NCBI GenBank assembly: GCA_963799485.1
Contig: CAWCXJ010000008.1
Coordinates: 192,001-256,000 of the forward strand
Origin: an uncultured Trueperaceae bacterium
GTDB taxonomy: Bacteria > Deinococcota > Deinococci > Deinococcales > Trueperaceae
Length of the DNA: 64,000 nt
Direction of reading: 5' to 3'
The notes under the pieces were generated by a model. It made no database searches. It had not been told where the DNA came from and saw only the letters and a program-made list of their open reading frames with translations. Below are positions 7,862-14,005 of the stretch, one piece after another. A program made the translations under genes and the position numbers. Position 1 is the stretch's first letter. The number at the start of each line of letters is the position of its first letter.

Positions 7862-9697
7862 ATGTTACATAACCTTTCACTCTTACACGACCCGCTGCGC
7901 GGGCGGCATGAAGGCAAGGCTGTCACCGTCGCCCTGCAAACGAGTCAACCCGTAACGGCGGCCTGGGTGCGAAGTGAACCCGACAACGAGGAGTTTTTGA
8001 GCCCACTGCTTCCTAAAGGTCGAAAGGGACGCTGGTTCATCTACCAGGGCGAGTTGCGCCTCAACCCGGCGGACACGGTGACGCGTTACGCCTTCAAGGT
8101 GTTGCCGGAAGCTTCAGCACATCAGCCGGGGCAAGTGTGGCTGAGCGAACTCGGTCAAACACCGTATTTTCCCGAACGTGCCGGACACTTTCGTTTCAAT
8201 CCGGGTTACAAGCCGGTGCCGTGGCTCTGGTCGCAAGTTTTCTACCAGATTTTTCCCGAGCGTTTTTATGACGGGGGCCCCGGCAACAACGTCGTGAGCG
8301 GCGAATACCTTTACGAAGGCAAGCCGGTCGTGGCGAAGGCGTGGGACGCGTTGCCGGAGCGTAAACAGGGGCCGAGGGAGTTTTACGGCGGCGACTTGGA
8401 GGGTATTCGGCAAAAGCTGCCGTACTTGCAAGACCTGGGTGTTACGGCGCTCTACTTAAACCCCGTCTTCACCTCGCCGAGTTCACACAAGTACGACACT
8501 GTAGACTATTTTCACGTTGACCCGCATTTTGGCGGCAACGAAGCACTGGAAACGTTGTGCGCGGCGCTGCGTGAACGCGATTTTCGCCTGATTCTAGACG
8601 CCGTGGTCAACCACACCTCGGAGCGTCACCCGTGGTTCGACCGTTACGGTGAGTACGACAAGGCTGGGGCATATGGTGGCGGCGAAACAAAAGACTTCTA
8701 CACCTTTGCTTCTGCTGACCCCGATTCGTACAGCGGCTGGATTGGTGTCAAAACTTTGCCCGTACTCGACTTTTCGCACCCCGAGGTGCGGCGGCGTGTC
8801 TACGAGGCCGACGACGCGGTGCTGCGGTACTGGTTGCGTCCGCCCTACAGCATCGACGGTTGGCGTTTCGACGTGGTGCATATGCTGGGCGACGGTACCG
8901 GGGCTAAAAACAACGCAGCGTATGTGCGCGGGTTTCGGCGGGCAATCAAGGAAGAAAACCCCGAAGCGCTGGTTTTGGGTGAACACTTTTTCGAGGCGAC
9001 CGCTTGGTTGCAGGGCGACCAGGAAGACAGCGCCATGAACTATTACGGGTTTACGCTGCCGGTGCGGGCGTTTCTGGCAGGTACCGATCACCGGGGGCAT
9101 TCTCTACAGATTGACGCGCGCGATTTTGAGTATCTGCTGACGAGGGCAAGGGCTCAACTCCCCTTTGAAATCCAGCTCTCGCAGTTCAACTTGCTCGGTT
9201 CACACGACGTCGCGCGGCTGCTCACACTTTTAGATGGCGATACTGCGCGGCTTAAATTAGCTGTGACGTTGCTGCTGACCTACATCGGCGTGCCGTGCGT
9301 CTATTACGGCGATGAAGTGGGGCTTTTGGGCGGCGATGACCCCGACTGTCGCCGGACGTTTCCGTGGGACGCGGCGCGCTGGAACCAGGACATGCTAGCT
9401 CACTACCGGGCGCTGATTGCCTTTCGGAAAAAGCGGCGCGTGTTGCAAGAAGGGCTTTTTATCCCGCTTTACGCTGAAGGGGATGTGGTCGCATTCGCGA
9501 GGGTTTTGGAAAGTGAAATGGTGTTCGTTATTGTCAACCGTGGGGAAGCGGTGGGGCTCGAGCTTGACCTCTCGCAAGTCGGCCTAAAAGATGAGCGGCT
9601 TCAGTCGTTCTTTGAAAACGAGCTTGCTCGAGTTGAAGATGGCGTTTTACAACTGACATTGGAAGCGTGCAGCAGCCGAGTCCTCTTTACAAGTTAG
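7862..9697 (+). CDS. malZ: Maltodextrin glucosidase (GH13)
   Basis: FYQIFPERF, FYGGDL, HKYDT, DGWRFDV, GEHF, LGSHD; start set at ATG 7862, 7 nt after TAAGCT. Confidence 0.88.
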   Translation: MLHNLSLLHDPLRGRHEGKAVTVALQTSQPVTAAWVRSEPDNEEFLSPLLPKGRKGRWFIYQGELRLNPADTVTRYAFKVLPEASAHQPGQVWLSELGQTPYFPERAGHFRFNPGYKPVPWLWSQVFYQIFPERFYDGGPGNNVVSGEYLYEGKPVVAKAWDALPERKQGPREFYGGDLEGIRQKLPYLQDLGVTALYLNPVFTSPSSHKYDTVDYFHVDPHFGGNEALETLCAALRERDFRLILDAVVNHTSERHPWFDRYGEYDKAGAYGGGETKDFYTFASADPDSYSGWIGVKTLPVLDFSHPEVRRRVYEADDAVLRYWLRPPYSIDGWRFDVVHMLGDGTGAKNNAAYVRGFRRAIKEENPEALVLGEHFFEATAWLQGDQEDSAMNYYGFTLPVRAFLAGTDHRGHSLQIDARDFEYLLTRARAQLPFEIQLSQFNLLGSHDVARLLTLLDGDTARLKLAVTLLLTYIGVPCVYYGDEVGLLGGDDPDCRRTFPWDAARWNQDMLAHYRALIAFRKKRRVLQEGLFIPLYAEGDVVAFARVLESEMVFVIVNRGEAVGLELDLSQVGLKDERLQSFFENELARVEDGVLQLTLEACSSRVLFTS

Positions 9698-10799
9698 CAC
9701 TGTAGCGTCCGCTCGGCAAGGTTTGAATCGTACCTTGAAGTTCTAAAGTCATCAGGGTTGGCAACAGTTCGGGCGCACTTTTTCCGGTAGCGACAATCAG
9801 CTCATCTAACAGCGGTTCACCCCGGCTCCGAATCAGCGCCGTAAGTTCACCTAAAAATCCGGGCAGTTCAGGTTTGGGTTTTGCGGGGGTGCGTGCGTGC
9901 TGCCAACCGAACTCGCTGCGAATGTCGTCGGCACTCTGCGTTAAAACCGCGCCCTGTTTGAGCAAATCCAAGGCACCTTCAGCTCTGGGGTCGCCGAGCC
10001 TGCCGGGAACGGCGAAGACGCTGCGGCCCTCCTCGAGCGCGTACTCTGCCGTAATCAAAGCGCCCGATTTTCTGCCGCCTTCGACGACTAAAACACCTTT
10101 GGAAAGCCCGCTGATAATCCGGTTGCGTCCGGGGAAATATTCGGCTCTCGGCGACGTGCCGAGGCGGTATTCGCTCACAATCGCGCCGCGACCTTCTAAA
10201 ATGCGCTCAGCCAGGCGGCGGTTGCCACCGGGATAGATGATATCGACGCTCGAGCCCAACACCGCCACCGTCTGCCCGCCTGGTGTAGCCAACGCACCTT
10301 CGTGCGCGGCGGTATCGACCCCGAGTGCCAGACCTGAAACGATGGCGACGTTTGTTTCCGCCAGCTCTTGCGAAAAACGGCGGCTCAGCTCGAGCCCGTA
10401 GTGACTCGCGTTCCGCGTCCCGACGACGCCCAAGCTCCGCAGTTCGGTCAGCTCGCCGTGTACCGTTTCGGGTAGTGTCCCGCGCACATAGAGTACCGGC
10501 GGCGGGTCGTAAATCCGCGCCAGGGCTGCCGGGTATTCGGAGGTGCCGAGCGCTAAAAGCGTGACGTTGAGACGTTGGACCCGGGCCATTTCCGCGTCGG
10601 CCTTGGTTTGGGCGACGCCTCGAGCCGCTACAATAGCCTCGGCAAGCTTGCGTCCGATGCCTTCGACCTGCGTAAGTTCTGCCGCGCCCAAATCTGTGTC
10701 TGCGCCAACCCCGAAATGTTCGACCAAAGCCTTGATTTTGCGCGGCCCCAAACCGGGGGTGAACGAAAAGGTCAGCAGGGCGTGAAGCGCGGGGTTCAT
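9687..10799 (-). CDS. dprA: DNA-processing protein DprA
   Basis: VVGTR, VSGLALGVD, FPGRNRIISGLS, SGALITA. Confidence 0.93.
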   Translation of the reverse strand: MNPALHALLTFSFTPGLGPRKIKALVEHFGVGADTDLGAAELTQVEGIGRKLAEAIVAARGVAQTKADAEMARVQRLNVTLLALGTSEYPAALARIYDPPPVLYVRGTLPETVHGELTELRSLGVVGTRNASHYGLELSRRFSQELAETNVAIVSGLALGVDTAAHEGALATPGGQTVAVLGSSVDIIYPGGNRRLAERILEGRGAIVSEYRLGTSPRAEYFPGRNRIISGLSKGVLVVEGGRKSGALITAEYALEEGRSVFAVPGRLGDPRAEGALDLLKQGAVLTQSADDIRSEFGWQHARTPAKPKPELPGFLGELTALIRSRGEPLLDELIVATGKSAPELLPTLMTLELQGTIQTLPSGRYSANL

Positions 10800-10843
10800 G
10801 TAGGGCAATCGTAACAGGCGCGGGCGGCGCTGCCGATGAAGTT

Positions 10844-11513: not shown

Positions 11514-12947
11514 TCAAACCCGCTCTTTGGGCGCGCCGCGTTTCCACCGCACCCCGCCCGGCGCGTCCTCCAACACCAGCCCCAGCTCTGCCAAACGGTC
11601 ACGAATCGCGTCGGAGGTGGCAAAGTCGCGGCGCGTCCGGGCTTCCTGCCGCTGTTCACTGACGAGCTGGACAAGTCCGTCCAAGAGGGCCGTATCATCC
11701 TGCACGTTTTCCTGAACCCCGAGAATGCCGAGTACGTCCCCGGCGAGGTCGTCGAAAAAGGCTTTGGCTGCTGCTATGTACGCGGCGTCCGCGCGGCCTA
11801 GTTTGGCGTTGACATGGCGGCTTACGTCGAATAGTACGGCAATGGCCTGCGGCGTATTGAAATCGTCGTTCATCGCCGCCGTAAAACGCTCGCGGTAGGC
11901 CGTAAAAGGGTCGTTTTGCGGCGTCGCCTCACCCTCCACGCGGCGCGAAAGTTCTGCGTAAGTTTCTTGCAACCGTTTAAGCCCTTGTTTGGAGGCGTAC
12001 ACGCTTTCGTCCGAAAAGTCGCTGACGCTGCGGTAGTGCGCGCCCAAAAGGTGAAAGCGGAGCGCCGTCCCACCGTGTTCGGCAAGGAGTTCGGCAAGGG
12101 CCAAGGCACCTTTGGACTTCGCCATCTTCTCACCGCCGAAAGTCAAAAAGTTCCAGTGGAGCCAGTACCGCGCGAACGGTTTGCCTGCACCTTTCGCCTG
12201 GGCAATCTCGCACTCGTGGTGCGGGAAAATCAGGTCGAGGCCGCCGCCGTGAATGTCGAAGGTGTCGCCCAGATATTTGGTACTCATCACCGAGCACTCG
12301 AGGTGCCAGCCCGGATAGCCTTCACCCCAAGGCGAAGGCCAGTGCATCAGGTGGCCCTTTTCGGCGGCTTTCCACAAGGCGAAGTCGCGCGGGTCGTCTT
12401 TGTCGCTCCTAACCTCTACGCGCGTACCCTCTTGCTGGTCGTCGGCGTTGCGGCCCGAAAGCTCGCCGTAGTCGTCCCACGCCGATACGTCGAAATAGAC
12501 GTTGCCGCCGCGTTCATAGGCCAGGCCGCGTTCCAGTAGCGTTTGCGTCATCTCAATCTGTTCGGTGATGTGCCCGGAAGCGCGCGGGATGATGTCGGGG
12601 CGGCGCACACCGAGTTGCGCCATCGCATCGAAATACCGCCAAAAGTACTTTTCGGCAATTTCCATGGGCTCGAGCTGCTCCAAGCGCGCCCGTTTGACGA
12701 GTTTATCCTCACCCTCGTCGGCGTCGTCGGTTAAGTGCCCGACGTCGGTAACATTGGAAACGAAACGCACCCGGTAGCCTTCATGCGTAAACCAGCGGCG
12801 CACCACGTCGAAAAATACCGGGCCGCGGGCATTACCGATGTGCGGTTCACTGTAGACAGTCGGGCCGCAGACGTAAATCCCGACGTGGTTCGGGACGAGC
12901 GGCGTAAAGGTTTCTTTTTGACGGGTCAGGGTGTTGTAGAGCTGCAT
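11514..12947 (-). CDS. cysS: Cysteine--tRNA ligase
   Basis: [36 protein letters not shown]. Confidence 0.97.
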
Positions 12948-12993
12948 GGGGTCTCCTTGGGGCAGATGTGGGGGCTAGGGTCGGCTTAAAACG

Positions 12994-13032
12994 CTAGCAA
13001 CATCGTGGGGTAGTAAAGGAGAACTTACTCAT
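12994..13032 (-). CDS. Putative cysS leader peptide MSKFSFTTPRCC
   Basis: ATG 6 nt after an extended -10 (TGC-TAAACT); ends TGT TGC TAG; contains TCTCCTT, complementary to the cysS SD AAGGAGA. Confidence 0.75.
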   Translation of the reverse strand: MSKFSFTTPRCC

Positions 13033-13038
13033 GCTTAA

Positions 13039-13047
13039 AGTTTAGCA
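13039..13047 (-). promoter_or_regulatory. Extended -10 promoter of the cysS leader (leaderless)
   Basis: TGCTAAACT-N6-ATG. Confidence 0.65.
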
Positions 13048-13141
13048 TGGCGTCTGTTCTGACCGAGAAGCCAAGTAGACACAGCGATATTCGCGTACCT
13101 ATTTATCCTCTTGATTTGAAAAGGCTGTAACGATAAGCTGT

Positions 13142-13581
13142 TCAACCTCCCCTGACGAACGTTGTGTTGTATCGGTGGACGCTCAACTTGCTCTGAACAG
13201 ATGGATGGTCGATGATGCCCTTATAGACGCCGTAATTTCTGTAGACACGCTCTTTGTCTAACGAGTTGTCCCGCCGACGTTTGCGTTTGACAAGCTCGGG
13301 GAGCATTGCGTGAAGTTCGGTGATGACAAAGCCTTGCCCGTAAAAAGCCGTGATTTCTTCTCTGGTAAGATAAGAAGTGACAAAGAGGATGGAATCGGCG
13401 TCTGTTTCGAGAAAATTTTTCACGATGCGTTCAAATAAAGCTTGATAACCTCTTCGCTTTCGGGCCAGATGCCGCCGTTTAATCTCTGTGTTTCGTCATC
13501 TATCTCGAACACCTCGAGCCCTGAACGCGGCGCAACCGTCGATTTGCCCACACCGGAGAGTCCCAAGAGTAGAGGCTTCAT
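13142..13581 (-). pseudogene. Frameshifted small P-loop (nucleotide-kinase-like) protein
   Basis: ATG 13581 reads MKPLLLGLSGVGKST (Walker A) and stops near 13420; adding one T at about 13438 joins it to ORF 13142-13423. Confidence 0.55.
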
Positions 13582-13689
13582 AAGTCATCTTTTCACAAAT
13601 TATGAGGCCCGGTGCGTTACCAAAATATTAAGCTGGGGATATACCTTGCTTGAGGGCTGACCAAACTCGTGAGCGCGAAGAGGTGATTA

Positions 13690-13935
13690 AGGGCTCGAGC
13701 GTCCGAGGCCAGCGGACGGCTGCGCCCGCACCCGCGTTGGTCGAAGACGGCGTGGTACGTCTCCGGGTCGAAATTACGGCGTGCGCCGGGGGTAGAGCCG
13801 CTACCGGGGCCGCCGTGCAGGTAGACCGCCGGGATACCCGCAGGCGTGCCCACCTCTTCGTAGTACAGCGTATGAGCGTTCCCGACCTCGAGCATTCCGG
13901 AGTAAGGTTCTATTGCCGGATGGCTATGGGTCACT
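13690..13935 (-). pseudogene. Truncated proline iminopeptidase (N-terminal fragment)
   Basis: HTLYYEEVG, LHGGPGSG, FDQRGCGRSRP present; the catalytic GxSxG and the rest are absent. Confidence 0.75.
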
Positions 13936-13976
13936 GCAGCACCAGATATATTGCAGCACCAGATATTCCTGGCAAA

Positions 13977-14005
13977 CAAAAAAAGAGCCCCCGAGGACTC
14001 TTTTA
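13977..14005 (-). terminator. Intrinsic terminator of rpmB
   Basis: AAAAGAG...CTCTTTT hairpin with a T-run on the minus strand, just after the rpmB stop. Confidence 0.65.

Follow-up and report, generated by a model that had tools for sequence, protein, structure and literature searches.

The cysS locus of an uncultured Trueperaceae bacterium raises the question of whether a reading frame of only 12 codons that precedes the gene serves as a leader peptide reporting on cysteine and, if so, which part of the frame does the reporting and how the report reaches cysS. The locus lies within a stretch of 64,000 nt (contig C8 of the 3.66-Mb assembly GCA_963799485.1), which we refer to as the window and to which all coordinates refer. 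In Firmicutes, T-box leaders of cysS respond to uncharged tRNA-Cys by direct binding of the tRNA, without translation. The window shares the target gene with these leaders, but an Rfam scan of positions 12000-14000 at E values up to 10 returned three chance-level matches, with no T-box and nothing else relevant among them.

Anatomy of the cysS leader locus

The features of the locus, all on the minus strand, are as follows.

13039 to 13047, minus strand: extended -10 element TGCTAAACT, read from the sequence and separated from the ATG of the short open reading frame (sORF) by TTAAGC (6 nt)
12994 to 13032, minus strand: leader sORF MSKFSFTTPRCC, 12 codons plus TAG, with its ATG at 13032-13030; putatively leaderless
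13016 to 13022, minus strand: anti-SD UCUCCUU within sORF codons 4-6, with 7/7 positions paired with AAGGAGA in the MFE and centroid folds
13000 to 13005, minus strand: putative sensor dicodon CGA-UGU (Arg10-Cys11), followed by UGC at 12997-12999
12974 to 12998, minus strand: small hairpin GCUAG...CUAGC across the sORF stop codon in the predicted fold, without a U run after it
12965 to 12969, minus strand: ACAUC, predicted partner of GAUGU (13000-13004), forming the inner helix that closes the anti-SD/SD interval in the predicted fold
12952 to 12958, minus strand: cysS Shine-Dalgarno (SD) sequence AAGGAGA, the exact complement of TCTCCTT at 13022-13016
11514 to 12947, minus strand: cysS, cysteinyl-tRNA synthetase, 477 aa, with Pfam domains tRNA-synt_1e (E 9e-101), DALR_2 and CysS_C

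On the minus strand, the sORF reads ATG AGT AAG TTC TCC TTT ACT ACC CCA CGA TGT TGC TAG, and its stop codon is followed by 46 nt and then by the cysS ATG at 12947-12945, from which the gene opens ATG CAG CTC TAC. Further downstream of cysS lies dprA (9687-10808), and an ORF of 93 aa (13142-13423) lies upstream of the leader. A sequence-only reading of this DNA had placed the -10 element, the ATG, the stop codon, TCTCCTT, the SD and the cysS start on the minus strand, and each of these positions is correct, as is its claim that TCTCCTT and AAGGAGA are perfectly complementary (13022-13016 and 12958-12952).

A two-hexamer promoter scan found 0 sigma-70 sites at the cysS leader, and the sole terminator-like match there is on the plus strand. 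That match is an inverted repeat, CCATGCT-AAACTTTA-AGCATGA, which at 13029-13050 covers both the -10 element and the ATG of the sORF and is probably due to chance, because it is absent from two other Truepera leaders (L002 and L003). An 84-aa GTG ORF, listed mechanically on the plus strand at 12735-12989, runs antisense to the 5' end of cysS and the leader.

A similar element is known from the same phylum. The 5' end of the Deinococcus deserti cysS mRNA encodes a leader peptide of ten residues, two of them Cys, and its transcription start site (TSS) was mapped on the AUG of this peptide by dRNA-seq with TEX-treated libraries (Fig. 6 of de Groot et al. 2014, Genome Biol Evol 6:932, PMC4007540). 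A supplementary table of that paper gives the cysS gTSS at -121, and the authors predicted that the leader acts by transcription attenuation (PMC4007540). D. deserti and the window share the gene and the layout (-10 element, short Cys ORF, leader, SD, cysS), but the leaderless start was mapped in D. deserti, whereas in the window it is predicted. Judging from the extended -10 element and from the homologue mapped in D. deserti, the cysS transcript in the window would start at, or within 1-2 bases of, the A of the ATG at 13032. The statement in the sequence-only reading that no such description exists for cysS in Deinococcota is wrong in light of the D. deserti case (PMC4007540); this kind of element is already known, including in this phylum, and to call it new to the phylum would be an error.

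Conservation of the leader across Deinococcota

We compared cysS upstream regions using a phylum set of 326 genomes, which comprises one order and five families (f1-f5), with f1 being Trueperaceae, the family of the window. Orthologues of cysS are present in 321 of these genomes. The leader sample consists of the cysS 5' regions of 110 genomes, namely the first 30 and 80 further genomes that were chosen to span all families and, among those listed, the maximum number of f1 genera, with genome G300 left out. The leaders of f2 (10-11 codons, CC, sORF approximately 105-130 nt before cysS) match the D. deserti peptide and gTSS (PMC4007540), and we therefore take f2 to be Deinococcaceae; f4 probably corresponds to the Thermus and Meiothermus groups.

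A mechanical caller, which looked for TAnnnT, a spacer of 5-9 nt and an ATG or GTG opening a frame of 4-60 codons with at least one Cys, found a Cys-containing leaderless-type sORF upstream of cysS in 91/110 regions, compared with 8/110 reverse-complement controls. Such sORFs occur in all five families among the 110 genomes, and the leaders contain an R-C or C-C motif at 89/110 loci. Within the first 30 loci, 23 carry TGnTAnnnT, 5-8 nt and an ATG or GTG at the homologous position, and the TGT is in frame with the promoter-proximal start at all 21 loci that combine this arrangement with a downstream GATGT. L007 was set aside from this frame test, as its GATGT match is its own ATGATGT start. Three further Truepera-like metagenome contigs encode MSPLLMYDTRCC, MFLLSHARC and MFLRPSYTRCQLPRDDS, each followed by a stop codon, at the same site, and peptide residues outside R-C are not conserved among the leaders. 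The cultivable T. radiovictrix likewise has the homologous leader (locus L006).

The excess over controls (91/110 against 8/110) and the preserved frame (21/21) indicate that the proposed leader peptide with Cys codons before cysS is not a chance ORF. The comparison thus confirms the observation that the sORF is real, conserved and placed as would be expected for a leaderless leader peptide of cysS. A short ORF lies 5' of the gene and contains conserved codons for the amino acid that the gene handles, as in ribosome-mediated attenuators, and the interpretation of the sORF as a sensor is strongly supported by the comparison between genomes. The expectation of a conserved Cys sORF upstream of cysS across Deinococcota therefore stands, while the covarying anti-SD/SD pairing that was expected along with it was not found in seven Truepera leaders.

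The remaining 19/110 loci carry no such sORF upstream of cysS. In genus g23 of f4 (L050, L051 and L060), there is no sORF, and TATAAT lies 7 nt before the cysS ATG, while at least six f1 loci (L018, L088, L096, L105, L108 and L109) have a -10 element directly before the cysS start. Because the -10 element directly precedes the start, cysS itself looks leaderless in g23 and at those f1 loci, and cysS in g23 appears to be free of leader-peptide regulation. Two f1 loci feature repeats: in L009, GATGTCACTAA is duplicated in tandem at the end of the sORF, and in L011, the interval from the sORF to cysS contains GATGGCTTGCGA four times in tandem.

Arg-Cys written CGA-UGU is the conserved unit of the leader

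The sequence-only reading took the Cys-Cys pair as the sensor, a view that the comparison does not uphold. Two Cys codons are present in the window leader, but f1 leaders mostly contain just one, and CC is present in only 16/49 leaders of this family. The conserved unit is instead Arg-Cys written CGA-UGU, with the exact hexamer CGATGT found in 46/49 leaders of f1, 9/9 of f3 and 12/12 of f4. CGA directly precedes the first sensed Cys codon in 68/70 leaders of these three families, and the first Cys codon is UGU in 88/89 leaders across all five. The CGA/UGU pattern spans cysS upstream regions of approximately 41 to 67% G+C. A tract of consecutive Cys codons of the mycobacterial type occurs neither in the window nor in most f1 leaders, and the cysS leaders of f2 and f5 carry CC or CCC without CGA.

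Within the genome that contains the window, CGA accounts for 5.2% of Arg codons and UGU for 34% of Cys codons. Its tRNA-Arg genes have the anticodons ACG, CCG, CCT and TCT only, of which ACG and CCG alone serve CGN codons, tRNA-Arg(UCG) is absent from its tRNA genes, and there is one tRNA-Cys, with anticodon GCA. The genome also has a TadA-like gene, whose score of 146 bits is just short of the curated cut-off (150). In the absence of a gene for tRNA-Arg(UCG), CGA would be decoded only by tRNA-Arg(ACG), presumably with I34, through I:A wobble; UGU would be decoded through G:U wobble by the single tRNA-Cys(GCA), and both codons would therefore be slow choices. CGA has been measured as a slow codon in the his leader of Salmonella (PMC4046918).

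The same arrangement is found before other genes, in leaders that all lie outside the window; together with cysS, four unrelated leaders thus have a nearly invariable CGA ahead of the codon that is sensed. Among 15 f1 loci each, all 11 R-W leaders found for trpE contain CGA-UGG and all 11 leaders found for thrS contain CGA-ACG, and CGA-AUG is present in 8/9 R-M leaders of metG found in 30 loci of f1, f3 and f4. In contrast, trpE and thrS leaders in f3, f4 and f5 have runs of WWW or TTT in place of CGA-X, with TTT in the thrS leaders of f3. The trpE leaders of Trueperaceae also share G-R-W-R written CGATGGCGN, and the thrS leader of the genome that contains the window (contig C5, L333/L334) ends ...ARTSLHAR with CGA-ACG. 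Of the leaderless sORF candidates genome-wide, 11/49 contain CGA, a share that carries no weight as evidence because random triplets are estimated to give about as many.

Two other accounts of the conserved hexamer were considered and set aside. An ACAUCG-like sequence that could pair with CGAUGU occurs downstream of it in the window, L003, L111, L104 and L005/L071 but not at other loci, and a second frame started by the internal AUG of CGAUGU gives products without conserved length.

We suggest that CGA may be a functional part of the sensor, acting either as a programmed pause or through wobble pairing in the P site that slows decoding in the A site. Our broader proposal is that Trueperaceae and, for cysS, two sister families use a fixed two-codon sensor grammar of CGA plus a chosen cognate codon, in which CGA would serve as a sensitiser, a single codon would replace codon runs and the expression platform would have been exchanged between families. 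We advance this proposal tentatively, with somewhat less than even confidence. Literature searches returned no paper on leader peptides of Truepera or Meiothermus and none on CGA before regulatory codons.

Folding of the window leader predicts masking of the cysS SD

In both the MFE and the centroid fold of the window leader, nt 11-17 (UCUCCUU) pair with the cysS SD and nt 3-10 pair with the cysS AUG and codons 2-3, with GAUGU:ACAUC formed between them. The MFE fold has a z score of -2.48, and 5/200 shuffles fold equally well. The predicted probability that the SD is paired, P(SD paired), is 0.96 for the free RNA and 0.93 with a modelled ribosome at the stop codon, and it falls to 0.40 in a stall model with UGU in the A site, an opening that depends on the assumption that the footprint extends 12 nt or more 5' of the P site. 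These results are stable from 30 to 55 C. As a background, 54 genes of the same genome with an A[AG]GGAG[AG] SD have a median P(SD paired) of 0.52, and 1/54 reaches 0.96; six other Truepera leaders give 0.66-0.82 as free RNA, above that median. Moving the A site along the sORF leaves the SD open for codons 2-11 and closed from codon 12, which makes UGU the final codon that, when in the A site, keeps the SD open.

The pairing itself is less distinctive. The window sORF:SD duplex, at -10.0 kcal/mol, does not stand out from 300 dinucleotide shuffles of the CU-rich sORF (z -0.91, p 0.17), and among the seven Truepera leaders only L004 is significant in this test (p 0.023). A weak sORF:SD signal is present in f1 leaders with a gap of at most 65 nt (n=16, mean z -1.35, 25% at p <=0.05), whereas f1 leaders with long gaps show none (n=36, mean z +0.20), and f2, f4 and f5 leaders show no duplex signal against shuffles. 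In the trpE leader of the same genome, MRFKLSFQLEPQRWRL (contig C7, minus strand, L301), the sORF lies approximately 67 nt before trpE and contains CGA-UGG, with no terminator. There, approximately 17 nt including UCC-UUU (UCCUUUCAGCUCGAGC) pair with the trpE SD region at -28.3 kcal/mol (z -2.57, p 0.007); over 11 f1 genomes, the trpE duplex test is significant in the genome of the window only.

The expectation of covarying anti-SD/SD pairing found no support, as RNAalifold returned 0 consensus pairs for the seven Truepera leaders and three of the seven have their anti-SD outside the footprint of the stalled ribosome. The position of the anti-SD is not conserved among Truepera leaders: in L002, L003 and L111, the best anti-SD is GUCUCC at nt 3-8, outside the Cys-stalled footprint, and the modelled stall barely opens the SD (0.69 to 0.57, 0.72 to 0.71 and 0.66 to 0.51, respectively). 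ACAUC or GCAUC occurs at the equivalent place in L111 and L003/L191 and is absent in L002 and L004. An SD partner inside the stalled footprint (>=0.5) was found in approximately 20 leaders of f1 and f3 and in 7 of f2, f4 and f5, with no clear enrichment over the terminator families. The proposal that a stall releases a masked SD therefore stands in part: the fold pairs codons 4-6 with the SD and a modelled stall at UGU opens it, while a ribosome at the stop codon does not, but covariation is lacking and the duplex is unexceptional against shuffles.

Masking of the SD by a leaderless Cys-sensing sORF is our best reading for this genome, which we consider plausible rather than proven and about as probable as its negation, given its reliance on modelled folds. 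According to this reading, the first 39 nt of the transcript would be translated as a leader peptide whose role is to report the supply of Cys-tRNA(Cys) and not to make a product, with CGA-UGU as the reporting unit. When Cys-tRNA is plentiful, the ribosome would reach UAG and leave, which would let nt 3-17 pair with the SD, the AUG and codons 2-3 of cysS and keep translation of cysS low. When Cys-tRNA is scarce, the ribosome would wait with UGU in the A site and cover approximately nt 14-43, which would block both the anti-SD helix and the inner GAUGU:ACAUC helix, leaving the SD free and cysS translated.

The output part of the leader differs between families

We scored as a terminator any hairpin of at least -8 kcal/mol strength that follows the sORF and ends at a U run. 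Such terminators are present in 14/15 leaders of f2, 12/12 R-C leaders of f4 and 4/4 leaders of f5, but in only 1/49 of f1 and 0/9 of f3. Between the sORF and cysS of the window, there is no hairpin plus U-run terminator of the D. deserti type. This absence is meaningful because the metG and aspS leaders of the same genome have canonical terminators. The metG leader, MNGRMMQLRPGPG (contig C8, minus strand, L271), has CGA-AUG-AUG followed by a clean hairpin and U6-U9 terminator, and the Asp/Asn leader, MNPRRFDDDNWWYGA (contig C6, before a 435-aa class II AspRS-like gene), likewise has a clean hairpin and U6-U9 terminator. This one genome therefore mixes terminator-type leaders with leaders that are putatively of the SD-masking type.

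In the f2 example L035, the Cys codons CUGUUGC can be read as pairing with GUAGCAG around the stop codon, and GCGGUAGCAG as pairing with CUGCCGCCGC, which overlaps the 5' arm of the terminator; both pairings are readings by eye and not computed tests. A classical four-segment attenuator layout can thus be read off the f2 leaders. The f4 leaders (L052-L061, L068-L070 and L027) have sORFs of 6-7 codons that encode M-x-F-A-P-R-C with the stop right after UGU. Their terminator stem begins 15-16 nt after UGU, as checked in L027, L052 and L055, and CGAUGU or GCGAU can pair with the 5' arm of the terminator.

Alternative outputs for the same sensor

The main rival retains the sensor and assigns the output to Rho, which would load after the sORF stop and end transcription in early cysS unless a ribosome at the C-terminal Cys codons kept it off. 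This arrangement would be of the tnaC type, a design in which the leader-peptide ribosome controls Rho-dependent termination, and it would account for the absence of conserved RNA structure. The genome contains a gene for Rho (Rho_RNA_bind, 90 bits), and the 32 nt between the sORF stop and the SD are C-rich and G-poor (44% C, 16% G), although a leader that bears an anti-SD or is unstructured would likewise be C-rich and G-poor. Across this gap, the median C-G skew reaches +0.23 in the 49 leaders of f1 and +0.25 in the 9 of f3, which are the families that lack terminators; it is lower in f4 (+0.05) and f5 (-0.20) but also positive in f2 (+0.19), where terminators occur. In the window, 11/49 f1 leaders and 3/9 f3 leaders, the Cys codons lie within two codons of the stop; in 38/49 f1 leaders, however, Cys is more than two codons before the stop, which would place the RNA beyond the stop out of reach of a stalled ribosome. 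The 46-nt gap is, in addition, short for a Rho loading site. We consider Rho-dependent termination unlikely.

A second alternative, which we judge improbable, assigns the output to mRNA stability, with a ribosome near the 5' end shielding the leaderless RNA from 5'-dependent decay so that more cysS message would be present at low Cys-tRNA. A parked ribosome shields the message from 5'-dependent decay in this way at the erm leaders of Bacillus. Shielding would need only features that are universally conserved, namely an AUG at the 5' end, an sORF of short length and a sensor codon, which in most short leaders is codon 5-11, and is consistent with the lack of conserved structure. However, the stalled ribosome in the window would leave approximately 13 nt of the 5' end free, and many f1 sORFs have the Cys codon 20-35 codons from the start. 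Furthermore, three families clearly use terminators, so that where an output is readable, it is as a rule based on structure.

That the sORF is no sensor at all, with CGAUGU acting as a protein-binding or pairing site in RNA or DNA within a frame that is open by chance, or with the peptide itself being functional, is very improbable: the hexamer is conserved at the nucleotide level, its flanks often form a small palindrome (e.g., GCCGAUGUCGGC) and no Rfam family matches the locus, but the frame from the promoter-proximal ATG is kept at 21/21 loci, the controlled gene is the one that charges tRNA-Cys, the same logic recurs with a different hexamer in trpE (UGG), thrS (ACG) and metG (AUG), residues outside R-C vary, and f2 and f5 retain Cys codons without CGA.

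Relation to known leader peptides and significance

Masking of the SD by the sORF, our preferred reading for the window, has a demonstrated counterpart in mycobacteria, where leaderless polycysteine sORFs of the "Cys ribulon" act by SD masking and translational attenuation (Canestrari et al., 10.1101/834739), the mechanism that we propose here. In the mycobacterial leaders, it is the consecutive Cys codons that pair with the SD region, and the regulated genes belong to cysteine-metabolism operons, with no mention of cysS in the text of that report (10.1101/834739). The window differs in its unrelated phylum, its target cysS, its two Cys codons (one or two per leader) and an anti-SD that lies 4-7 codons upstream of them. 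Its Cys tract does not pair with the SD; in the fold, codons 4-6 do so, and the partner of the Cys region is ACAUC, located 6 nt before the SD.

Ribosome-mediated attenuation before cysS has also been described in Rhodobacterales, where uORFC-8-2 contains tandem Cys codons (Brewer et al. 2021, RNA Biol 18:2417, PMC8632094). That leader has two conserved stems and a U-run terminator, with its Cys codons at positions 14-15 and mostly UGC (PMC8632094), whereas the window leader has no terminator, no conserved stems, UGU as its first Cys codon and a start directly at the promoter. Compared with the D. deserti leader, that of the window lacks a terminator, is only 46 nt long between stop and cysS, and ends in R-C-C written CGA-UGU-UGC. 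The portion of de Groot et al. available (PMC4007540) contains no discussion of codon choice or of other families.

The new elements are the view, across the phylum, of a single sensor coupled to several outputs, and the CGA-X grammar. The cysS leader extends the published Deinococcus observation to the whole phylum, and the joining of one sensor to several outputs provides a clean natural example of modular attenuator evolution. The CGA-X grammar, if true, would add a new principle to the design of ribosome-mediated attenuators. If the effect of CGA holds, it would connect the sensitivity of bacterial regulation to P-site wobble decoding and furthermore would offer an easy rule by which to search for leader peptides with a single sensor codon, which escape present ORF and RNA-motif finders.
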